DNA of 64,000 nucleotides from Ignavibacteria bacterium (GTDB lineage: Bacteria; Bacteroidota; Ignavibacteria; Kapaibacteriales; Kapaibacteriaceae). A program made the translations under genes and the position numbers. The notes beneath the pieces are model-generated. The model saw only the letters and a program-made list of their open reading frames with translations, was not told the origin of the DNA and searched no databases. Each line of letters starts with the position of its first letter. Within the stretch, counting starts at the first letter, position 1. This document shows positions 1 to 46,983 of this stretch, piece by piece. The stretch is taken from NCBI GenBank assembly GCA_947458785.1, contig CANGZU010000002.1, forward strand, positions 1,770-65,769. Direction: 5' to 3'.

Positions 1-1
1 A

Positions 2-376
2 TCGATCTTGGTTCGCGGACTAGAGAACAACAAGAGGTATTTCTGGCGTGTCCGCAGTGCCAACGCTGATGCAACGGGCGTTTATGGTGAGCGGAGTTCG
101 TTTGTAACAGGAGTTCTCACAAACGTTGCTGAACAGCGCGAGGGTGTAATCGTTGGACCCAATCCAATGTCGACCACATGTCGAGTTACATCTCCAGAAC
201 TCATTGGTAGTAAGATCCATATGTATACATCCGATGGCAAGCTGGTGCGCGCGATCGAGTCAGCAACACAAAGTCTCTTCATCGATGTTGCCGACCTTCC
301 AAACGGAGCCTACACGCTTGTGATTTCGCGCGGAGGTCGTACGATCGTGCACTACTCGCTGACCAAGATCCAGTGA
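2..376 (+). CDS. 3' fragment of a secreted protein ending in a T9SS (Por) C-terminal sorting domain; the 5' end lies outside the window
   Basis: The frame is open from the window edge. The last ~80 aa (VIVGPNPMSTTCRVTS...IHMYTSDGKLV...LPNGAYTLVISRGG) fit the T9SS CTD pattern seen in other proteins of this window. Confidence 0.7.
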   Translation, partial: SILVRGLENNKRYFWRVRSANADATGVYGERSSFVTGVLTNVAEQREGVIVGPNPMSTTCRVTSPELIGSKIHMYTSDGKLVRAIESATQSLFIDVADLPNGAYTLVISRGGRTIVHYSLTKIQ

Positions 377-2535
377 CGATAGAGTCTGTCGAAGAGCTTT
401 TCCGAGGTCTGAATCGCGATCCATTCATCAATGTAGCGGTGCCATGCTACATCGTCGCCAGCAAGTAACATGACCATCTGATTCGGGAGTTCACCACCGA
501 AGACGGAGAGTACGTCGGTCTTCGGGTACAACACGCTCCATGCAGAGCCTCCTTCAGCATTCCACAGCAAAGCATCATACGCGCTCGGTTCACCTTGTGC
601 AAAGAAGGACTGAACATCTGGTATGCGGACAAATGATACGGGAACAGGTGGTCCCGGTGACCCAAGATGTGTCTCGATCGCATCTTTGAGATCCGATGAC
701 GGAAGGTACCTGTCTGCAACGGCAATGCGAATCGGGCTATCAGGCTTCCGAAGCTCTGCACTCTGAACCTTTTGCACCATATCATGCCAAACAACAAGCG
801 CACGATGAATGGTCTGATACCCATTGCTCGTATGAATCCGTGCCGCCCGGTAGGCGTTTTCCTCAATACCTCCGAGGACTAGGTCAAGCTGCTCATTGGT
901 GAGCATCTGCTCAAGCACGTCGAGCGGTGCCTCGACGAGTTGAACACGCAGTTCACTGAAGTTGGCAATCGTCTGGGCTACGTCTACATCATATCCGATG
1001 AGCCTGCCTGTTTGCGAACGAAATGACCAAGGAACATCAAGAGTCTTGATGCCGATACGGATTGCCCCCCTCATGCGTATCGAGTCTAGACGTGCAGTCT
1101 GCCGAGGGAACTTGGCTTCCGATACCTCGTCAATAGAAGCAACTTTGACATGTGAAGTGATTGAGTTACGCACTTCTACAAGGGGCTTGCGCGACATCAA
1201 CACTTCGTTCTTCTTATACGAACCAGCAAGCGTGTTCGTTAGAAGTGCAAAAATGCCTAGCGTCATGAACGCGCCAAGTGACAGCGAGGTTGCAAGCGTG
1301 CTAAACAATCGTCGCTTGTTCAATCGAAGAGTTCCAGTTGTAACGCCAACGATACAGATCACAAGTACGATCAAACCAATCAATGAGAGTGTCTTCTCGG
1401 TACGATAGATCCACTCTGTGTTGAGAAAGAAGATGTTGAGCAGATTCTCTGGTAGTGATGCAGCTGCAAGCTCCTGTCGGACAACGGAACGAATGCCCCC
1501 TATCGAACCTGGGATTCCAGTAGCAAGCATATGCAGCTTTTGCATAATGGTGAAGGACCTATCGGCGTACCAACCCATGAATGGTACCATCATCAGCATG
1601 TATACTTGACCAAGTGTTGGGAGCGCAAAACCCACCGGGACTGCGGCACCGATCTGTTCATGCGTCGTAGATATAATGTCGGTATTACGGTCTTTGAACT
1701 TCTCCGTGAGAACGTCCTGGAGGCTTGCTACCAGGGTGGGCAGACTGATGATGAGATTCGATGTGCTTGCTGTGAGGATAAGGGGCGCTTTGATGATAGA
1801 CCAGAGCTCTTTCCATGTAAGAGTCGAGAAGCTCATGGTAAGGCCAATCACGGTGATGGCTAGGAGCATAGCACCGGTTAGGCCAATCACTGGTAGCGCA
1901 TGTAATCGTATGAGTTCATCAGTGTTGGCAGCAGACAACGTTGTGCTAACAAGTGAGAACACTGCTATTGGCGTCATCTTGAGCACAACCTTGTTGAGCT
2001 TGCGGAAGAGCTCACGAGCGCTGTTCATGGGCACCAGTAGAACATCGCGTTCCTTTATGCCCTGCAGAACAAGTCCCGCAAATGCGCTAAAGAGCACAAC
2101 GGCAGGGAAGTTGTCTTCGGCCATTGCCGTAAAGATGTTGAAGGGAAGAAACTTCTCGATCAGGTTCATCTGTGGCGGTTCTGCTAGCAGACTCGGGCTA
2201 AAGAAGTTCGATGATGTGAGAGGGGGCAGCCATGTTGGGACAATGATCACAGCGATGCTGGCAACGATCACTAGCAGAAGGAAGACGAGTCCACCAGTAC
2301 GCAGCAGAGTGCGCAGAGAATTGCTGCTAAGGCCACCCAAGGAACATGCTAGCTCGAGCATGATGAAGGGCATCGTGACCAATTGCGACGCTCGAATGAA
2401 GATCGTACCAACTACCGACCAATAGTCTGTATAGTGCGGAACAAGCCAAGAGGCAAGTATCCCAAGCATCAGGCCGAGTAGGCACTTGGCCCCAAAGGAT
2501 GTGGACTTCAATCGTTGTAACAAAACACTCATCAT
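352..2535 (-). CDS. Fusion membrane protein: DAACS (sodium:dicarboxylate symporter family)-like domain, one extra TM helix, then a family-3 periplasmic solute-binding domain
   Basis: 727 aa ORF. The N-terminal ~400 aa are polytopic with DAACS-like segments (FLPFNIFTAMAEDNFPAVVLFSAFAGLVLQ, TASTSNLIISLPT, FLNTEWIYRTEKTLSLIG). An extra hydrophobic helix (STLATSLSLGAFMTLGIFALL) follows. The C-terminal part reads like SBP_bac_3 (RLDSIRMRGAIRIGIKTLDVPWSFRSQTGRLIGYDVDVAQ...LDLVLGGI). Confidence 0.75.
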   Translation of the reverse strand: MMSVLLQRLKSTSFGAKCLLGLMLGILASWLVPHYTDYWSVVGTIFIRASQLVTMPFIMLELACSLGGLSSNSLRTLLRTGGLVFLLLVIVASIAVIIVPTWLPPLTSSNFFSPSLLAEPPQMNLIEKFLPFNIFTAMAEDNFPAVVLFSAFAGLVLQGIKERDVLLVPMNSARELFRKLNKVVLKMTPIAVFSLVSTTLSAANTDELIRLHALPVIGLTGAMLLAITVIGLTMSFSTLTWKELWSIIKAPLILTASTSNLIISLPTLVASLQDVLTEKFKDRNTDIISTTHEQIGAAVPVGFALPTLGQVYMLMMVPFMGWYADRSFTIMQKLHMLATGIPGSIGGIRSVVRQELAAASLPENLLNIFFLNTEWIYRTEKTLSLIGLIVLVICIVGVTTGTLRLNKRRLFSTLATSLSLGAFMTLGIFALLTNTLAGSYKKNEVLMSRKPLVEVRNSITSHVKVASIDEVSEAKFPRQTARLDSIRMRGAIRIGIKTLDVPWSFRSQTGRLIGYDVDVAQTIANFSELRVQLVEAPLDVLEQMLTNEQLDLVLGGIEENAYRAARIHTSNGYQTIHRALVVWHDMVQKVQSAELRKPDSPIRIAVADRYLPSSDLKDAIETHLGSPGPPVPVSFVRIPDVQSFFAQGEPSAYDALLWNAEGGSAWSVLYPKTDVLSVFGGELPNQMVMLLAGDDVAWHRYIDEWIAIQTSEKLFDRLYRHWILVSE

Positions 2536-2549
2536 GCGTAATCAAGCCT

Positions 2550-4754
2550 TTACAAGTAGTCGTCCGATTCAGATGGAATCGCCTGTATCCAGTGTTTGTG
2601 AAGTAAACTGAAGAGTCCACGTTGTGTTTCAGAGGCTATCCAAACATCAATGAATTCTTCGAATACATCATTATCGCCCGCTATCAGCATAACAAGTGAC
2701 GACGACAATTCACGTCCAAAGGTTGGGTACATTGTAAACTCGGGATGCAGAATGGCCAACGTTGCACCTGCCTCGGCTGTGGTCAGCATTGCGTCGATGC
2801 CGAGTTTGTGATGCGATGCTATGAACTCCTTGATCGAAGGGAGTCGTACAAAGCGAACATCAGCAGGTGCAGGCAGGTAACTCAGCTTTTTCGCTATAGC
2901 ATATCTCAGTGCGGACGTAAGGTCTACTTTATCTGGTACACCAATGATGAACGGACGCCCTAATGTACCTTCACGAGCCTTTGCAAGAGCTTGATAGTGC
3001 TTGTCCTCAACAAGGAATGCACCATGCACTGTCTGATAGCCAGCACTGATGTTGAGTCCACTGTGTAAAAGGGTGAAATCAGGAAGTTGGCCGATTGCAA
3101 TGTCAACACGTTCTGAGCCAACGAGGGTGTCGATGAGTTTCAATGGAGCAACGTAATATCTGATACTTACGTTCAGCGACTGAGCTAACGCTTGTACAAC
3201 GTCGATGTCATGTCCCAACAACGTACCATGTTCATCAAGTCGAGCATAGGGTAAACCAACCAAATTCACTGCAACCCGCACAAATCCACGCTTTCGAATA
3301 GAATCTAGTCGCACCGGCATAGGCGACAGATCTTGAAATGCAGAATCACGTGTATTGTAGACTCTTACCATTGTGGACTTCTGAAGCTCAGGTACTATTG
3401 GGCGTAGCCTAAGCAGAATGTCATCGTTGACATACGTGGACGACAGTGCACTCGCCAAGTAGGTTGGCACCAGCAATGACGAGGCAACGATTATCGTTGA
3501 CGCGCAGAAAAGCATGGCCCCAAGTCGAGTGTATCGAACGCGAAACGTCTTGTTATACATGGCCGCGAGAACCATTGCAAGTGCAAGCAGTCCTACAGCA
3601 GATAGCGACTTCTCAAGACGGGCTATCCATTCATAGTTCACACTTAGCACTTCCATAACATCGGGTGGTAAGTGTGACGCAACAACCTCTTTGCGTATAG
3701 CAATCGCGATGCCGCCGGTAACTGTCGGTATGGCAGTAATCAGCATCTTCAATCGTGATAGTAGATCCATCGGGCGATCGATATACCACGCCATGTAGGG
3801 CACAATAGAGACCATAAAGACTTGCCCAACAGACGGTAGGGCATAGCCGATGGAGATACTTGTACCAATCTGCTCAGATAGTGAATCGATGTGTTGAGCG
3901 TTTGAATGTGATTCTGACTTCAGGAGCGTTCGCAATGATTCAACGATCATTGGCAATGCAATGAACAAGCTCCCACTGCTGAAGGTAACAGCAATGGGCC
4001 CCCGTAATGCGCGTAGCACGTCTAACAGTCGCAATGATGTAAAACTGACCACGCCCCCTATCATCACGACAATCAGGGCCATTGCTCCACAGAGCGTAAC
4101 CACTGGCAGTGCATGTAGTTTGTACAACTCATTGAAGTCGATATCAGAGGTTGATACTATCGTCAATGCCAGCACTCCGAGAGGCATGACTCGTGCAATG
4201 TACCCGTTGAATCTGCTGATGACCGCGCGAAGCTGATCTAATGGGGCTAGCAATACACCCTTGCGTTCAACCTGCTGCAATAGAACCCCTGCAGCTAGGC
4301 TGACGATAACAATTGCTGGGTAGTTGTCCTCTGTTAACGCTTTGAAGATATTGAATGGAAAGAACGTATCGTAGAGGTTTCCTGATTCAGCAACATCGAG
4401 CATTGCTGGCGTGAAAAAACCAGATGTGACCATCTCTGGCAGTAACGATGGTGTATACAGGCATGCAATAGCAGCAATTGTTATCAGGGCAGCGATGGTC
4501 ATAGCTCCGGTTCGTACGACCACCCGTAGGCTCTGGTCAGACAGACTGCCAATTGAACAAAGCAGTTCCAGTATCATGTACGGCAATACGGCAAACGTAG
4601 AGATGCGAACAAAGATTGTAGCTGCTGGTTCAAAAAACGGGACAGACTCGGGAATACCAGAGGCAATGGCTAACCCAAGTAGTAGGGCTGCAACGCAACG
4701 ACCACTATTCGTGGTTGGCATCAATCTGTTTATCATTTGCGGTATTTGCACCAT
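2550..4754 (-). CDS. Paralogue of the downstream gene: DAACS-like domain, extra TM helix, family-3 solute-binding domain
   Basis: 734 aa ORF, colinear with 352..2535 (roughly 35-40% identity by eye) and with the same architecture (FFPFNIFKALTEDNYPAIVIVS; RLDSIRKRGFVRVAVNLVGLPYARLDEHGTLLGHDIDVVQ). By alignment to the paralogue the start may be the in-frame ATG at 4736 or 4721. Confidence 0.75.
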   Translation of the reverse strand: MVQIPQMINRLMPTTNSGRCVAALLLGLAIASGIPESVPFFEPAATIFVRISTFAVLPYMILELLCSIGSLSDQSLRVVVRTGAMTIAALITIAAIACLYTPSLLPEMVTSGFFTPAMLDVAESGNLYDTFFPFNIFKALTEDNYPAIVIVSLAAGVLLQQVERKGVLLAPLDQLRAVISRFNGYIARVMPLGVLALTIVSTSDIDFNELYKLHALPVVTLCGAMALIVVMIGGVVSFTSLRLLDVLRALRGPIAVTFSSGSLFIALPMIVESLRTLLKSESHSNAQHIDSLSEQIGTSISIGYALPSVGQVFMVSIVPYMAWYIDRPMDLLSRLKMLITAIPTVTGGIAIAIRKEVVASHLPPDVMEVLSVNYEWIARLEKSLSAVGLLALAMVLAAMYNKTFRVRYTRLGAMLFCASTIIVASSLLVPTYLASALSSTYVNDDILLRLRPIVPELQKSTMVRVYNTRDSAFQDLSPMPVRLDSIRKRGFVRVAVNLVGLPYARLDEHGTLLGHDIDVVQALAQSLNVSIRYYVAPLKLIDTLVGSERVDIAIGQLPDFTLLHSGLNISAGYQTVHGAFLVEDKHYQALAKAREGTLGRPFIIGVPDKVDLTSALRYAIAKKLSYLPAPADVRFVRLPSIKEFIASHHKLGIDAMLTTAEAGATLAILHPEFTMYPTFGRELSSSLVMLIAGDNDVFEEFIDVWIASETQRGLFSLLHKHWIQAIPSESDDYL

Positions 4755-4810
4755 CGCAATATCGCGAAAAGGATGTGTGCGGCGACGAACAATTGCCTGT
4801 AATTTCGTTG

Positions 4811-5500
4811 ATGAATCAGATTGCAGAAAATCTCAAGGCAGTGCACGAACGAATCGATCTGGCTTGCTCCTTGTATCATCGATTGCCGCAGAGCGTTCAA
4901 CTTATGCTGGCAACAAAGACACAAACCGATAACGTTCTTCGCTCAGCTTTTGAAGCAGGTGAAACTCTCTTTGGGGAGAATCGTGTCCAAGAACTTGTGC
5001 CAAAGACATCAGAGTTGGCAGATCTACCAATCACATGGCACTTCATTGGTCACCTCCAAACGAATAAGGTCAAGGACGTGGTTGGTCGTGCCAGTTGCAT
5101 TCAATCAGTAGATCGTCAGTCACTTGTCGAGGCAATCCATAACGAGTGCACAAAGAAGCAAAGAGTGATCGACGTCATGATCGAGGTGAATACGTCGTTT
5201 GAAGAAAGCAAACATGGACTTCATCCGGATAATGCACCAGCATTCGTCGAAATGATCTCCGCTTATTCGACCATGCGCGTAAGGGGCTTCATGACAATCG
5301 GAGCGAACGTCGATGATGAGATAACTGTTCGCAAAGGATTCGCCATGCTTCGCGAACTGCGTGATCTTAGTCTGAGCATTCTACCGCAGGCCACTGAGCT
5401 TTCTATGGGTATGTCACACGATCTTGAGTGGGCTATCGCCGAAGGTTCGACCATAGTGCGCGTGGGAAGTGCCGTATTTGGTCAGCGTCCTAGCGCATGA
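4811..5500 (+). CDS. yggS: YggS-family pyridoxal-phosphate homeostasis protein
   Basis: Motifs ENRVQEL, WHFIGHLQTNKVKDVV, GMSHDLEWAIAEGSTIVRVGSAVFG. The start is set at the internal ATG at 4811 (MNQIAENLKAV...), which gives a canonical ~229 aa length and avoids overlap with the divergent gene. Confidence 0.85.
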   Translation: MNQIAENLKAVHERIDLACSLYHRLPQSVQLMLATKTQTDNVLRSAFEAGETLFGENRVQELVPKTSELADLPITWHFIGHLQTNKVKDVVGRASCIQSVDRQSLVEAIHNECTKKQRVIDVMIEVNTSFEESKHGLHPDNAPAFVEMISAYSTMRVRGFMTIGANVDDEITVRKGFAMLRELRDLSLSILPQATELSMGMSHDLEWAIAEGSTIVRVGSAVFGQRPSA

Positions 5501-7064
5501 TCACAACCGGCACCGACGTTGCGCCCAATTCGGTCGATACACGAAGAGTGTATTTTCCCGCTGGCAGGTGGCTAACATCTACGTTCGAGTCTGAAAGTCC
5601 TTGCTGAACCATATGCGGCTGGGCGTCATGATAGACGCGGTTTCCTGAGACGTCAATCAGTTCAATAGTAGCAGTACGCTCCTGATCACTTTCGATGATC
5701 ATGCGAATGCGCTCACGACTGGGGTTGGGCACCACAGAAACGTCCAGGCCTTTGAGGAGCTCGCGCTCATGAACGGATGTCGGAATTGGTGTGTCCATAT
5801 CGATCGATTCATCACCCGGCTGATAGGGGAGCCAGTGAAAGTAGCACAGTAGCATTTCATCTGTTGTTCCCTCGCCCCATCGAACTTCTTTTGGCGGATT
5901 ATTGGGGTTGTTCAGATTATTGATCGTGTTGTCGTATGTAGCGATGTAGTGGAGTTTAGAGCCACGTGGGATACGAACAGGATTCTTGTACGTATAGCCC
6001 CCTTGCCAATGGAAGTCCCATTGATCGAGCTTGATGAGGTTGATCGTATCACCCTTGGGTGTTACAGCAAAAGCCCTGCAGTCGCGCCCTAGAAGGTGCA
6101 TATGCGGAGCGATTCCGAGCAAGCTGATCTCGAGTGGAGTGGTATACGATGTGGTAAAGATCGGTACCTTATTGGCTGGAATGATGAACTTCTGCCCAGC
6201 CACCAAGTTGTTGGGCGACATAGGGAACTCCTGCACCTGACGCACGTCGTCGTTTTCATGGAAGAATACGTTCACGTGTGATTGGTCGTACTGTTCTGTC
6301 GTTGAAGGGGCGTAATGCACTTGAATAATCAGATCAGAGTTCTTGTGCATCGTAGCGCCGATCGTGGGCGGATAGAATCGCGTCTGTGCGCCTGGAACCC
6401 ACCCGAGAAACGAGGCGGCAGATTCAAATCCTGGATCGCCAAAACCGGAATAACCGGGGAGCTGATCTTCCGCATCTTTCTTGCGCGCTGTAGCCGTTGT
6501 ATCGAGGAAGTAAAGCACGTGGTGAACTACGGCGGCATTTCCCGGACGGAATTCCAGCGCTTTGATGTGTCGATCACGCAGAAGATTTGTCGGCAGCACG
6601 AAGAACCGATAGACGTCGCGATTGTTTCCCCGAACGGTCCACCTTTCGCTCATGGTGAGTACCATATCGGGCTTGCCAAGCTGCGAACCACTCGGAAATG
6701 TTGGGAGCTTAGGAGCGGCTGCAAGATCGCCCGAAGGAGTATCTGCATCTACCCAGTCTGAGATTGTTTGAATTTCGTCTTCTGTGAGAGAACGATCCCC
6801 AACGAAACTACCATGACCCTTTACCGGAGGCCACGGTGGCATTTCCTTCTTCGTCACTGCCCGCTTGATAGAATATGCGAAGTCAACCGCCTGCTCATAC
6901 GATTCAAGTGTGAAAGGGGCTATCTCTCCGCTGCGGTGGCATGGAGTGCAATTCTTGTAGATGATCTTTGCGACGTTGGAAGACCATGTGGGCGCTGAAC
7001 CTTGTGCCAGTGCGGCAATGGCTGCGAACACAATTGTGAGACCTACAGTGAGAGTTTGCTTCAT
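5490..7064 (-). CDS. Secreted fusion: c-type cytochrome domain, PHM/DBH-like copper type II monooxygenase domain, T9SS C-terminal sorting domain
   Basis: Signal peptide (MKQTLTVGLTIVFAAIAALAQG). CTPCH haem c motif with a downstream KKEMPPWPP. Candidate Cu ligands: VVHHVLYF, VHYAP, APHMHLLGR, TTDEMLLCYFHW. CTD-like tail (VVPNPSRERIRMII...GKYTLRVSTE). Confidence 0.7.
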   Translation of the reverse strand: MKQTLTVGLTIVFAAIAALAQGSAPTWSSNVAKIIYKNCTPCHRSGEIAPFTLESYEQAVDFAYSIKRAVTKKEMPPWPPVKGHGSFVGDRSLTEDEIQTISDWVDADTPSGDLAAAPKLPTFPSGSQLGKPDMVLTMSERWTVRGNNRDVYRFFVLPTNLLRDRHIKALEFRPGNAAVVHHVLYFLDTTATARKKDAEDQLPGYSGFGDPGFESAASFLGWVPGAQTRFYPPTIGATMHKNSDLIIQVHYAPSTTEQYDQSHVNVFFHENDDVRQVQEFPMSPNNLVAGQKFIIPANKVPIFTTSYTTPLEISLLGIAPHMHLLGRDCRAFAVTPKGDTINLIKLDQWDFHWQGGYTYKNPVRIPRGSKLHYIATYDNTINNLNNPNNPPKEVRWGEGTTDEMLLCYFHWLPYQPGDESIDMDTPIPTSVHERELLKGLDVSVVPNPSRERIRMIIESDQERTATIELIDVSGNRVYHDAQPHMVQQGLSDSNVDVSHLPAGKYTLRVSTELGATSVPVVIMR

Positions 7065-7126: not shown

Positions 7127-8020
7127 CTATTTAAACACCATCACTTTGAAGACGGCAGATGCCGGATCCTTGTCGGCATTATCGTAGTTGTTGAATCGAA
7201 TGGTTACAGTGTTTGCAGCTGACACCCATGCCGTGTAGCACGTGTTCACTAACACGGCTGCATTCGGAACGCCCAGAGATACAGCGTCGCCCGAGGCCGC
7301 TCCCGTAATAGTAACCGTTAAGTCAGATGAGTTGCGTGTAGCAGTTATCGGGAAGTTCAGTGTTGCCGTTGCAACGGCCATTTGACGCCAGGACATGGTA
7401 CCCGATGACGATACCTCCAGCACACCTCCGCCGAGTTGGGTTCCACTTGCTGCTTCAGAAGGCTTACTCGTTGGCCAATTGTAGGTCACGCTTCGTATTG
7501 TTGAAAGGTCGCCATTGGCGCCGATCACCAACTGCTGACTGCCACTGCTGTTCTGTACCTCTAATAGGTTTGCAGTAGCGCTTGCTGCCCCTCGAATGAT
7601 GAGGCCCTTTTCAGACGCGCTGGAAGTATTGAGTTGGAATCGACCATCAGGAGATGTTGTGCCCACGCCAAGTGTCGCACCATTGTCATAAAGGATACTA
7701 GTTCCAAGTCCAGTGGCTGAAGTGTATTTCGTAAGGTAGTTGGCGGTGCCATTGATAGTTGCGCCATTGAGCAGAGCAATCCAGCTAAGCCCGCCGGATC
7801 CGTCGTTTGAGAGTACCGATCCAGCTAAACCTTGTGCCGAAGGAAGTGTGAGCGAATACGTCGAATCGAGCGTTGGAGCAAGAAGTTGCACCACCTTACC
7901 ATTGCCGTTGTGTTGAATGTTCAGTTGTCGTGTGAGCAGCGGCAATTGAGCGTGTACCTGCACCGAGAGCAAAATGCACCCTATTGTCGTCAACGCACAC
8001 AGATACGATATGTGATTCAT
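7127..8020 (-). CDS. Secreted tail-fibre-like protein (paralogue family member 1), function unknown
   Basis: Signal peptide ending VHAQ. The N-terminal ~70 aa align with the protein at 8095..9180 (AQLPLLTRQLNIQ...YSLTLPSAQGLAGSVLSNDGSGGLSWIA versus AQLPFESREIKLQ...YTITLPNAVGSTGSLLYSNTTTGGLTWTG). No T9SS tail is recognisable. Confidence 0.6.
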   Translation of the reverse strand: MNHISYLCALTTIGCILLSVQVHAQLPLLTRQLNIQHNGNGKVVQLLAPTLDSTYSLTLPSAQGLAGSVLSNDGSGGLSWIALLNGATINGTANYLTKYTSATGLGTSILYDNGATLGVGTTSPDGRFQLNTSSASEKGLIIRGAASATANLLEVQNSSGSQQLVIGANGDLSTIRSVTYNWPTSKPSEAASGTQLGGGVLEVSSSGTMSWRQMAVATATLNFPITATRNSSDLTVTITGAASGDAVSLGVPNAAVLVNTCYTAWVSAANTVTIRFNNYDNADKDPASAVFKVMVFK

Positions 8021-8094: not shown

Positions 8095-9180
8095 TTACTG
8101 AGCTGCGAGAACCATGTAGCTAAACTTGCCACTGTATGCACCAGAGAACGTGACGGTGAAGCCTGTTCCAGGAGTGCGTGAAGTAACTGTTGCGGTTACT
8201 GATGTACTTCCTTCAAGTGTAACAAGAATTGCATCAGTTGCCGTCAGTGTTGTTAAACCGGTAACAGTGTGTGATGTTGCACCGGCAGCCGTTGTTACGA
8301 GTGCAACACTACGAATACCAATTGCGCTATTGATGCTTTGCCACTCTGGCGTTGCGCCTGTTCCCTTAGATACAAGTACGTTGCCAATGGATCCGGCAGC
8401 ACCATTCATTTGTAGTTCACGAGTAGTACCGACAAGATTAACGTTGCCAGTAACATCAAGATCGCCTGTCATATTCACGTCTCCAGTATGACCCAGCGTA
8501 CCAACTGTTGTGATGGTGCCACCGGTTCTACCGATAGTTACCGTTCCTGCAGTGGTGCCAGTACCGATGTTCGTAGCAAATGTGCCAGTCGATGTATTGA
8601 TGTTCGTTGCCCCGGTGAGGTTGGAGGTACCCAGGAGGTTGACAGTGTTGCCGTCTTTACCGATGTTGGTTGTAGCACCAGCATTGGTCCCATCATTGAT
8701 GCCAATGACGCCACTACCTGTGATGGACATACGCTCCAAGTTGTTCGTGATGATACTTATGCCCTGATTCGTTGAAGAACCGAGAACACCAGTAGCACCG
8801 AGAGCATTGCCCGTAAGAGACCAGTTCGGGTTGTCGGCACCTGCAGGGTCTACCCATTCGATTGCAGTCCCGTTCCAACGGAGCGAGTATCCCGTTCCGC
8901 CCGGAGCACCAGTCCATGTCAGACCACCTGTTGTTGTGTTGCTATACAGCAAAGAACCGGTGCTACCCACGGCATTAGGAAGCGTGATGGTGTATGGCGT
9001 GGTTACGGTTGAAGGAGCTACGATTGACAGAGATCCGGCTGCCGAACCCTGCAACTTGATCTCTCGTGATTCGAAAGGCAGCTGAGCGAAGGATTCATAC
9101 GGTACCGTAATGAGGACCGCAAGAGTAAGAGCGACACGTAGGCGTGTCAAGATTGTGGTTATGCGCATGTGCATCTCCAA
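8095..9180 (-). CDS. Secreted Gly/Thr-rich repeat, tail-fibre-like protein (paralogue family member 2)
   Basis: Signal peptide. The N-terminal module is shared with 7127..8020. The central part is degenerate G/T/N repeats (GTSNLTGATNINTSTGTFATNIGTGTTAGTVTIGRTGGTITTVG...). It contains the motif LQMNGAAGSIGNVLVSKGTGATPEWQS. Confidence 0.6.
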   Translation of the reverse strand: MEMHMRITTILTRLRVALTLAVLITVPYESFAQLPFESREIKLQGSAAGSLSIVAPSTVTTPYTITLPNAVGSTGSLLYSNTTTGGLTWTGAPGGTGYSLRWNGTAIEWVDPAGADNPNWSLTGNALGATGVLGSSTNQGISIITNNLERMSITGSGVIGINDGTNAGATTNIGKDGNTVNLLGTSNLTGATNINTSTGTFATNIGTGTTAGTVTIGRTGGTITTVGTLGHTGDVNMTGDLDVTGNVNLVGTTRELQMNGAAGSIGNVLVSKGTGATPEWQSINSAIGIRSVALVTTAAGATSHTVTGLTTLTATDAILVTLEGSTSVTATVTSRTPGTGFTVTFSGAYSGKFSYMVLAAQ

Positions 9181-24234: not shown

Positions 24235-24308
24235 TCCGCAGTAGCTCAGCTGGTTAGAGCATCTGACTGTTAATCAGAGGGTCCGGGGTTCAAGTCCCTG
24301 CTGCGGAG
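24235..24308 (+). tRNA. tRNA-Asn (anticodon GTT)
   Basis: A 74-nt cloverleaf folded by hand: acceptor tccgcag/ctgcgga, D-arm gctc/gagc, anticodon stem tctga/tcaga with loop ctGTTaa, T-arm cgggg/ccctg with loop ttcaagt. CCA is not encoded. Confidence 0.9.
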
Positions 24309-24320
24309 CACGAAACGATA

Positions 24321-45614: not shown

Positions 45615-46983
45615 CGGCTATATCCATGATTCTCTCATCTCCGAACATTGGCCCCTGAAGCTGCATACCGATTGGTAGCCCCTTGCTATCAGTTCCGAAT
45701 GGAACACTTAAGGCAGGAATCCCGGCAATGTTTGCTGATACCGTGAAGTAGTCACTTAACCACATTTGTACGGGGTCTTTAACGTCGCCGATGCCAAACG
45801 CCGTGGTTGGAGTTGTAGGTAATGCAAAGGCATGGTATGATTCAAAGATCTTTGCATAGGCATCGCTGATCAAACGTCGGGCCTGTTGGGCCTTAGTGTA
45901 GTATGCTTCACCATATCCTGCCGAGAGCACAAAAGTGCCCAGCATGATACGACGTTGAACTTCAGGCCCAAAGCCATCAGATCTGCTGGCCGTGGTGATG
46001 TCGCCATCCTCGGCTTCTGCGCGCAATCCGTAGCGCACTCCGTCGAAGCGCGCAAGATTACTCGATGCTTCGGCTGTTGCAAGAATGAAGTACGTCGGAA
46101 TCCAGAGCTCGCTGTAGGGCAGAGACACTTCCTCAACAACTGCACCCGTGGCCCGGAGAGCATCGAGGTAGCCTGCATAGGCAGCAATGATATCAGGATC
46201 ACAGCCCTTGAGCTCCGCAACGGGAAGTGCCGCTATCCGCAGTTGGTCTGCTGATACGCTTGGCAGGGGGCTTACATTCTTCACAGATGTTGCGTCCATC
46301 TGGTCATACCCAGCGATGATGTCGAATGTAGCCTGCATATCGGGCAGCGTGCGACTGAAGATGCCAATCTGGTCAAGAGACGAGGCGAATGCTACCAAGC
46401 CATAGCGTGAGATGCGGCCATACGTGGGCTTGAGACCGTAGGTGCCTGTGAATGCTGCTGGTTGACGTATCGAACCGCCGGTGTCGGAACCAAGCGATAC
46501 GTGGCACATACCGCCAGAGACAGCTACAGCAGAACCGCCCGATGAACCGCCCGGCACGCGCGAAGGATCCACCGAGTTGCGCACAATGCCAAAGGCTGAT
46601 GTCTCATTCGACGAACCCATGGCGAACTCATCCATGTTTGTCTTGCCGATGACTAAGGCACCGGCATCCATCAGACGCTCGATAACCGTTGCATTGTAGA
46701 GTGGACCGAATCCTTCAAGCATACGTGAAGCACACGTTAGCGGCTGTCCGGTAACGCTAATGTTGTCCTTGACAGCAACCACAAGCCCCTCGAGTGGACG
46801 CGCCAGCCCGGCAGCGAAACGCTCGTCCGAGGCGTCGGAATCGCACCGCACACCATCGGTGTTTACATGCAGAAACGCATGGAGCGAGGATTGTTCCTCG
46901 ATCGAGGTGAGAAATGTCTCAACCGTTGAACGAACCGTGGATCCGCCTGCAATGATTGTGCTACGGTCTTCTGTGTAACTCAT
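45595..46983 (-). CDS. gatA: Asp-tRNA(Asn)/Glu-tRNA(Gln) amidotransferase subunit A
   Basis: Amidase signature GGSSGGSAVAV, KDNI, ~462 aa. Confidence 0.9.
   Translation of the reverse strand: MSYTEDRSTIIAGGSTVRSTVETFLTSIEEQSSLHAFLHVNTDGVRCDSDASDERFAAGLARPLEGLVVAVKDNISVTGQPLTCASRMLEGFGPLYNATVIERLMDAGALVIGKTNMDEFAMGSSNETSAFGIVRNSVDPSRVPGGSSGGSAVAVSGGMCHVSLGSDTGGSIRQPAAFTGTYGLKPTYGRISRYGLVAFASSLDQIGIFSRTLPDMQATFDIIAGYDQMDATSVKNVSPLPSVSADQLRIAALPVAELKGCDPDIIAAYAGYLDALRATGAVVEEVSLPYSELWIPTYFILATAEASSNLARFDGVRYGLRAEAEDGDITTASRSDGFGPEVQRRIMLGTFVLSAGYGEAYYTKAQQARRLISDAYAKIFESYHAFALPTTPTTAFGIGDVKDPVQMWLSDYFTVSANIAGIPALSVPFGTDSKGLPIGMQLQGPMFGDERIMDIAATLASR

Follow-up and report, generated by a model that had tools for sequence, protein, structure and literature searches.

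Before TAXI-GltS was described, TRAP and TTT were the only secondary transporters known to use a solute-binding protein (SBP), and the association of SBPs with elevator-type carriers has since been called 'an emerging theme', which further classes would test (PMC12344293). Fusions are strong evidence of such a partnership, and only 14 of them were found for TAXI-GltS (PMC12344293). The present analysis concerns two adjacent genes, here named A and B, in a stretch of 64,000 nucleotides from an Ignavibacteria bacterium (assembly GCA_947458785.1, contig CANGZU010000002.1, positions 1,770 to 65,769), which is referred to as the window. Each gene encodes a membrane domain with the DAACS/SLC1 fold, a ninth transmembrane (TM) helix and a C-terminal SBP domain of family 3. 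The two products are interpreted, with moderate confidence, as tethered-SBP, elevator-type transporters in which ion coupling is either non-canonical or absent.

In TRAP and TTT transporters, a periplasmic SBP feeds an elevator carrier, typically with a carboxylate clamped by a conserved arginine. These SBPs are normally separate polypeptides and TRAP is Na+-driven. The present family is related to these systems neither through its membrane protein (DctQM or TctAB in their case) nor through its SBP (there of the DctP/TAXI or Bug families). TAXI-GltS, known from Bordetella BP0403/GltS and from Lachnospiraceae fusions, resembles the present family in placing an SBP on an elevator carrier outside TRAP and TTT. 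However, its membrane component belongs to GltS/ESS instead of DAACS, its SBP is of the TAXI type instead of family 3 and occupies the N-terminus, its GltS is Na+-coupled, and its 14 fusions compare with more than 150 sequence clusters here. The membrane domain of A and B is not homologous to DctQM, TctAB or GltS; in the function proposed for it, it would work alike while belonging to none of them. Importers of the GlnPQ type, represented among the structural matches by 6h30, tether the same SBP family to a membrane translocator, but the latter is an ATP-driven ABC permease, whereas here it is a DAACS carrier with no ABC permease or ATPase gene adjacent.

On the membrane side, the reference is the DAACS/SLC1 family (GltPh, GltTk, GltP, DctA, the EAATs and ASCT2). 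The fold is common to both, with the re-entrant hairpins HP1 and HP2, a broken TM7 and TM8, as are the scaffold motif (L/V)P(F/T)N(I/P)F..A.A and the position of the TM7 break; A and B differ in lacking the NMDGT motif and in adding TM9 and a periplasmic SBP of ~290 aa. A particularly relevant member is AncInt (9bgy, 9bgz, 9bh0), an ancestral 'uncoupled' aspartate transporter which established that substrate binding and transport can occur without ion coupling in DAACS (PMC12668577). It is the best structural match of both membrane domains (TM-score 0.77-0.84). Nevertheless, AncInt has no SBP domain, and it keeps the Na+ and substrate-site residues, its uncoupling being due to allosteric changes, whereas in the present family the site residues themselves have been replaced.

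SBP-assisted secondary transport is therefore known as such, and what is new is its pairing with the SLC1/DAACS fold. The original prediction, which had been made from the DNA sequence alone, recognised no SBP-dependent DAACS transporter among known systems, in agreement with PMC12344293, where TRAP, TTT and TAXI-GltS are the only ones. A DAACS-SBP fusion was described nowhere in the full-text literature searched, outside which lay one possibly relevant review of transporter fusions. The fusion is visible in database annotations, under the name 'cation:dicarboxylate symporter family transporter' or, at JGI, 'Na+/H+-dicarboxylate symporter/ABC-type amino acid transport substrate-binding protein', yet appears to be uncharacterised.

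Domain architecture and its distribution

Both genes lie on the minus strand, a detail missing from the original prediction, which had otherwise correctly described two adjacent genes of 727 and 734 aa, 14 nt apart and sharing one architecture, as confirmed by the open reading frame (ORF) list and BLASTP (Table 1). Both reading frames run without interruption, all the sequence motifs quoted at that stage are found in the two proteins, and A and B are 34% identical from end to end (720 columns, E = 3e-150, BLASTP). Since B orthologs are 728 aa long and begin with MI(K/N)RL, the true start of gene B is most likely Met7, at coordinate 4736, giving a product of the same length. The two genes are probably co-transcribed.

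The Pfam SDF profile (PF00375, cut-off 27.9 bits) matches residues 16-346 of A with 102.7 bits and residues 19-347 of B with 78.3 bits, covering profile positions 3-329 of 387 only. The match ends at position 329 because the third of the domain formed by TM7b, HP2 and TM8 has diverged in sequence, though not in fold. When PDB sequences were searched with the family profile, the alignment to GltPh ended at HP1/TM7a; the sequence-only search reached no further, and it took a comparison of folds to reveal that the remainder is conserved. Profile-profile comparison by HHalign of the 152-member family with GltPh, GltP and DctA gave a probability of 99.94% (E = 2.4e-36) over 382 columns, with a range of 99.3-99.94% and 376-382 columns across runs. 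In the latter profile, the GltP and DctA sequences are those of E. coli in RefSeq, and 16 landmark residues of the GltPh sequence were checked against the known numbering.

Single-chain AlphaFold2 (AF2) models were built with family alignments and reached a mean predicted local distance difference test score (pLDDT) of 84 with a predicted TM-score (pTM) of 0.69 for A, and a mean pLDDT of 79.6 for B. The model of A contains HP1 (residues 241-279), the break in TM7 (305-307), HP2 (330-358) and a long TM8 (363-400). In Foldseek searches against the PDB, the membrane half of A matched 9bgy with a TM-score of 0.77 over 413 columns and EAAT3 with 0.75, and that of B matched 9bgz with 0.84 and 9bgy with 0.83 (0.82-0.84 across 9bgy, 9bgz and 9bh0), the matches to these three structures spanning ~400-413 columns. 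Full-length matches, which include these three structures, GltTk, GltPh, EAAT3 and ASCT2, had TM-scores of 0.7-0.84 over 400-445 columns. The predicted fold thus consists of eight TM helices and two re-entrant hairpins, arranged in a scaffold and a transport domain, and trimers are expected by homology. The DAACS fold proposed for the N-terminal part is borne out by Pfam, HHalign and Foldseek alike, and the individual segments agree: FLPFNIF..EDNFPAVVLFS of A is aligned with the DAACS TM4 motif VPTNPF..GQVLPTIFFA, the segment TASTSNLIISLPT maps to HP1, NTEWIYRTEKT lies within the TM8 helix of the A model, and the scaffold motifs are conserved in the HHalign alignment.

The C-terminus of DAACS proteins is cytoplasmic, and an extra helix is what would bring a C-terminal domain outside. 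In A, TM8 is followed by GTLRLNKRR, the loop at residues 401-409 counting four Lys or Arg and no acidic residue, and then by the ninth helix (H407-436), modelled at a pLDDT of ~90. The hydrophobic character of this helix is kept in 149 of 152 family members; the loop preceding it contains at least two Lys or Arg in 149 of them, with a median of zero Asp and Glu. As TM8 ends inside, the loop is basic (in keeping with the positive-inside rule) and TM9 crosses outward, the linker and the SBP domain are predicted to be periplasmic, and the extra helix and external SBP of the original prediction hold as a prediction on the grounds of hydropathy, modelling and conservation. The linker is confidently modelled and carries a motif, Y440..D443..L446, which is conserved in the close subfamily; for both reasons, a well-defined geometry seems more likely than a loose tether. 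Moreover, TM9 is joined by only ~6 residues to TM8, which belongs to the moving domain, so that the SBP would be expected to travel with the elevator.

The C-terminal domain was recognised by the Pfam SBP_bac_3 profile (PF00497, cut-off 26.4 bits) at residues 492-723 of A with 55.1 bits and at residues 493-724 of B with 26.4 bits, exactly the cut-off, and with this both Pfam domains anticipated for the two proteins pass their thresholds. HHalign to HisJ, ArgT and GlnH of E. coli gave a probability of 99.5% over 222 columns. Among PDB sequences, the family profile matched cyclohexadienyl dehydratase (CDT) and its reconstructed ancestors (AncCDT) at E = 1e-30, and also ArgBP. Foldseek supports the two-lobe hinged SBP fold, with TM-scores of ~0.75-0.83 to AncCDT-1, Trp-bound 9e2b, ArgBP, PEB1a and GlnBP (0.81 for B to both AncCDT-1 and PEB1a), and the models are closer to closed, ligand-bound SBPs than to apo ArgBP. 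The assignment to family 3 made in the original prediction is accordingly upheld, and the predicted SBP looks competent for ligand binding. With NCBIfam, similarity was weak and far below threshold to DctA, GltP and SstT, and likewise to Lys/Arg/Orn, cystine and His binding proteins; all equivalog cut-offs were missed, and neither half is a member of a named NCBIfam equivalog.

The architecture recurs widely. A word-indexed search returned 147 relatives, nearly all of 700-760 aa and with both Pfam domains, and an exhaustive search of representatives returned more than 150 full-length clusters at 50% identity with E < 1e-106, and 676 matches with E < 1e-30. The covalent fusion is present in every family member and at least five phyla carry it. 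Carriers include metagenome-assembled genomes (MAGs) of Ignavibacteria, Melioribacter and Kapaibacterium and many freshwater picocyanobacteria, some of which are isolates (Cyanobium spp., Synechococcus lacustris Tous, Vulcanococcus), while more distant ones are found in Allorhodopirellula solitaria (Planctomycetota), Coraliomargarita (Verrucomicrobiota) and Methyloprofundus (Gammaproteobacteria). In comparison with a relative, the ratio of non-synonymous to synonymous substitution rates (dN/dS) lies at 0.07-0.12 in both paralogs, whether in the membrane or in the SBP half (0.083 for the SBP of B), and both domains are under purifying selection. Judging from the number of clusters, the breadth of phyla and these ratios, the fusion is functional and old.

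Some taxon names attached to the family need care. The species-representative MAGs L020, L030, L034, L038, L049 and L058, which have cyanobacterial-type members, are labelled 'uncultured Klebsiella sp.', 'Asaia bogorensis', 'Bifidobacterium breve', 'Alphaproteobacteria' or 'delta proteobacterium', and are probably mislabelled or contaminated bins.

Coupling and substrate sites of the membrane domain

In DAACS, Na+ coupling is defined by [S/T]92-93, N310, [M/S]311, [D/E]312 and [D/E]405, and H+ coupling by a hydrophobic residue at 92, L311 and N405 (PMC12668577). Not one of the 152 family members carries either signature in full. All of them lack N310 and have no acidic residue at 312, and the residue aligned with D405 is neither acidic nor Asn in either TM8 register. 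The mapping of TM3, HP1 and TM7 was the same across three HHalign runs: GltPh Y89, T92 and S93 correspond to L88, V91 and A92 of A, R276 and S279 correspond to S259 and I262, and the serine motif of HP1 is altered with respect to DAACS. In the unwound segment of TM7, N310-M-D-G-T314 is replaced by P306-T-L-G-Q310 in A and by P307-S-V-G-Q311 in B. The loss of NMDG, which had been suspected by eye from GFALPTLGQV and GYALPSVGQV, is thereby substantiated, the former sequence falling on the NMDGT segment of A, while the 'symporter' label finds no support, both published coupling signatures being absent.

The replacement is itself conserved, with the consensus P-x-x-G-(K/R/Q). P306 and G309 are kept in 91% and 94% of members, F319 in 96% and W322 in 100%, and position 310 is occupied by Lys in 85 of the 152, by Arg in 19 and by Gln in 18. 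In TM8, R378 is the sole strongly conserved charged residue (84% Arg; Table 1). GltPh D394 pairs with R378 in one alignment and with K381 in another, a register shift of three residues, and the local alignment stops short of TM8, so R378 is matched firmly to neither D394 nor R397. The subfamily of Ignavibacteria and cyanobacteria is further marked by an unusually charged HP2/TM8 region (R349, R353, E355, E374, R378, E380, K381). A basic side chain is known to take the place of a bound cation in other Na+-independent carriers, and by analogy the hypothesis may be advanced that a basic residue has this role here. The pocket, as read from the alignments, is conserved within the family and yet non-canonical.

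Proposed binding-protein-assisted transport and its alternatives

In the proposed mechanism, each gene would encode a self-contained, binding-protein-assisted secondary transporter. The N-terminal ~400 residues would form the DAACS/SLC1 elevator, with TM8 ending in the cytoplasm; the basic loop and TM9 would return the chain to the outside, where a structured linker would carry the periplasmic SBP. The tethered SBP would capture a small polar solute and hand it over to the HP2-gated pocket, as in TRAP, TTT and TAXI-GltS. Because none of the canonical residues for Na+ or H+ coupling is present in the pocket, transport may be uncoupled, the SBP together with metabolic trapping providing efficient, one-directional facilitated uptake, or it may depend on a non-canonical coupling site. 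The residue corresponding to GltPh T314 is Lys or Arg in most members. The stricter version, according to which no Na+/H+ coupling sites are left and the tethered SBP provides affinity and directionality while riding the elevator on the transport domain, is put forward only tentatively. A and B may each assemble into homotrimers of their own specificity, or may combine in mixed trimers.

As regards the ligand, HisJ R77, which clamps the ligand alpha-carboxylate, is aligned with R563 of A, a residue whose conservation in the close subfamily is 90% or higher. Since this arginine is kept, the ligand of A probably bears a carboxylate, and its recognition would differ in part from that of a standard alpha-amino acid. 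In B the clamp position is Leu, for which reason its ligand is probably chemically different, and the two proteins would differ in what they bind.

Several observations weigh against this interpretation. An uncoupled carrier cannot concentrate a solute by itself. The tie of ~6 residues between TM9 and TM8 might restrict the movement of the transport domain. The clamp arginine, replaced by Leu in B, is found in only 81 of the 152 members, and the Asp which contacts the alpha-ammonium group (HisJ D161) corresponds to N659 in A and to Thr in B; across the family this position is mostly Ser or Thr, with Asp in 7 of 152, and is followed by the conserved pair A660-E661 (91% and 92%). Finally, no covariation was detected between residues of the SBP pocket (563, 659, 661 and others) and those of the membrane pocket (260, 307, 310 and 374-387).

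The missing clamp arginine and the lack of covariation also favour the main rival, namely that the DAACS domain transports directly and the SBP is an allosteric periplasmic regulator or gate sensing another ligand. Pockets that evolve without covariation, and an SBP which in B and many other members has no canonical ligand clamp, would suit such a division of labour, and regulatory domains fused to transporters are a common theme (PMC10710835). On the other hand, the known fusions between SBPs and transporters, whether ABC systems of the GlnPQ/OpuA type or TAXI-GltS, all deliver substrate, and the loss of the canonical high-affinity, ion-coupled binding residues fits reliance on an external binding module. 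A regulatory SBP is considered unlikely.

The disappearance of the canonical coupling motifs is equally what a transceptor would show, that is, a non-transporting receptor in which SBP binding is relayed through the elevator domain to a cytoplasmic partner. SBP_bac_3 does serve as a sensor elsewhere, and weak NCBIfam similarity was found to the SBP part of the StpK7 kinase and to that of MltF. However, the proteins have no cytoplasmic output domain, their cytoplasmic loops being just a few residues long, their gene neighbourhood holds no conserved kinase, regulator or other gene in Ignavibacteria or cyanobacteria, and the HP1-TM7-HP2-TM8 core is kept in fold under strong purifying selection. 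The original prediction had left open divergent transporters or SBP-gated sensors; the sensor alternative is weakened by the lack of an output domain and of a conserved partner gene, and is now judged improbable.

Cyclohexadienyl dehydratases evolved from family-3 SBPs, and the idea that the periplasmic domain acts as such an enzyme, channelling its product into the carrier, is less likely still. It draws on the best PDB sequence and fold matches, which include that enzyme and its reconstructed ancestors, but non-enzymatic binders (AncCDT-1, Trp-bound 9e2b, ArgBP, PEB1a) score equally, the HHalign match to HisJ, ArgT and GlnH is at 99.5%, and ancestral reconstructions, being consensus-like, tend to head such lists. 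That the fusion is an artefact of frameshift, mis-assembly or merged gene calling is practically discounted, in line with the original view that it is no annotation accident, by the intact frames, the recurrence of the ~720-aa architecture in more than 150 clusters including isolates, the conservation of TM9 and a dN/dS of ~0.1.

If transport assisted by the tethered SBP were true, A and B would belong to the first SLC1-fold transporters shown to use a binding protein, and would offer a natural test of the proposal that elevator-type carriers are the only possible partners of SBPs. No elevator family is better understood than DAACS/SLC1, for which dozens of structures exist and which bears directly on the human EAAT and ASCT transporters. 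An abundant SBP-fused branch of it would allow the coupling of an SBP to the elevator motion to be followed within one polypeptide, and would also reveal what can substitute for Na+/H+ coupling once the NMDGT core has been rewritten. Since cultured freshwater picocyanobacteria and planctomycetes carry the family, genetics would be feasible. The family may represent an unrecognised route for the scavenging of organic nutrients in oligotrophic lakes.

The gene pair and its genomic surroundings

Table 1. Features of the gene pair and of the surrounding window (positions in the window)
Feature	Position	Strand	Description	Evidence
Gene A	352..2535	minus	727 aa; DAACS-fold membrane domain, ninth TM helix, linker, family-3 SBP domain	ORF list, Pfam, AF2, Foldseek
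A, residues 1-406	1318..2535	minus	predicted DAACS/SLC1-fold domain (TM1-6, HP1, TM7, HP2, TM8)	Pfam, HHalign, Foldseek
A, P306-T-L-G-Q310	1606..1620	minus	replaces GltPh N310-M-D-G-T314; unwound TM7 segment	
A, R378	1402..1404	minus	sole strongly conserved charged TM8 residue	R 128/152, K 11/152
A, residues 407-436	1228..1317	minus	basic cytoplasmic loop (RLNKRR) and extra ninth TM helix	hydropathy, AF2
A, residues 437-480	1096..1227	minus	predicted periplasmic linker	AF2 pLDDT ~88
A, residues 481-727	355..1095	minus	family-3 (polar amino-acid type) SBP domain	Pfam, HHalign, Foldseek
B-stop/A-start spacer	2536..2549	minus	14 nt	
Gene B	2550..4754	minus	734-aa ORF; architecture as in A	ORF list, Pfam, BLASTP, AF2, Foldseek
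B, residues 7-407	3534..4736	minus	predicted DAACS-fold domain, with P307-S-V-G-Q311 replacing NMDGT	Pfam, BLASTP, AF2, Foldseek
B, residues 408-438	3441..3533	minus	ninth TM helix after basic loop	hydropathy, AF2 (H408-438)
B, residues 481-734	2553..3314	minus	family-3 SBP domain	Pfam, Foldseek
C-terminal end of a protein sorted by the type IX secretion system (T9SS)	8-376	plus	Por_Secre_tail; convergent with gene A	
YggS-type pyridoxal phosphate-binding protein	~4809-5500	plus	Ala_racemase_N; divergent from gene B	
524-aa protein	5490-7064	minus	Cu2_monoox_C, weak Cu2_monooxygen, T9SS C-terminal sorting domain	
Two adjacent secreted-looking proteins	7127-8020, 8095-9180	minus	297 and 361 aa	no Pfam match
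tRNA-Asn(GTT)	24235-24309	plus		
tRNA-Ser(GCT)	46469-46563	minus		

The B-A tandem is restricted to one sublineage of Ignavibacteria (L001-L003, L007, L009-L011), with an overlap of 4 nt between A and B or a gap of a few nt, and the gene is single-copy in the other Ignavibacteria and in all the cyanobacteria examined. Positions 352-4556 of the window are colinear with positions 1-4555 of the Melioribacter MAG contig L007. Nucleotide identity is ~90-96% throughout B and falls sharply where A begins, the membrane half of A standing at 70-80% and the SBP half at ~60-70%; the corresponding dS is 0.29 for B against 1.5 for A, with dN/dS not exceeding 0.12. This looks like an allelic replacement of gene A, or a recombination between lineages, and not like decay.

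Gene neighbourhoods were compared across 70 related loci, and no kinase, regulator, signalling partner, ABC component or metabolic operon was conserved nearby; upstream of the A/B pair, no riboswitch was recognised by Rfam. The cyanobacterial neighbours reflect housekeeping synteny only (a GH57-like gene, leuA, rplK-rplA), and those in Ignavibacteria are YggS and T9SS-secreted proteins. In Vulcanococcus sp. Clear-D1 (L004, 10001-12178), the single-copy fusion gene stands directly downstream of secE-nusG-rplK-rplA, at the site usually occupied by rplJ-rplL.

Around the pair, the intergenic region between the YggS-type gene and gene B measures ~55-75 nt and the synteny is kept in L001-L003; neither this gene nor the other neighbours point to a function of the pair. 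The Por_Secre_tail gene overlaps the 3' end of gene A by 25 nt (352-376), and a matching convergent overlap of 25 nt occurs in L001 (12160-12184). In the 64-kb window no Rfam family beyond tRNA was detected, the two tRNAs being the sole RNA genes found. The gene resembling a copper type II ascorbate-dependent monooxygenase adjoins the pair in the Ignavibacteria loci L001-L003 as well. The two secreted-looking proteins beyond it have alike N-terminal segments (AQLP..., ...LTLPSAQG..GS.L.....GGL.W) and repetitive bodies rich in Gly, Thr and Ser, and are possibly paralogous surface or fibre-like proteins.

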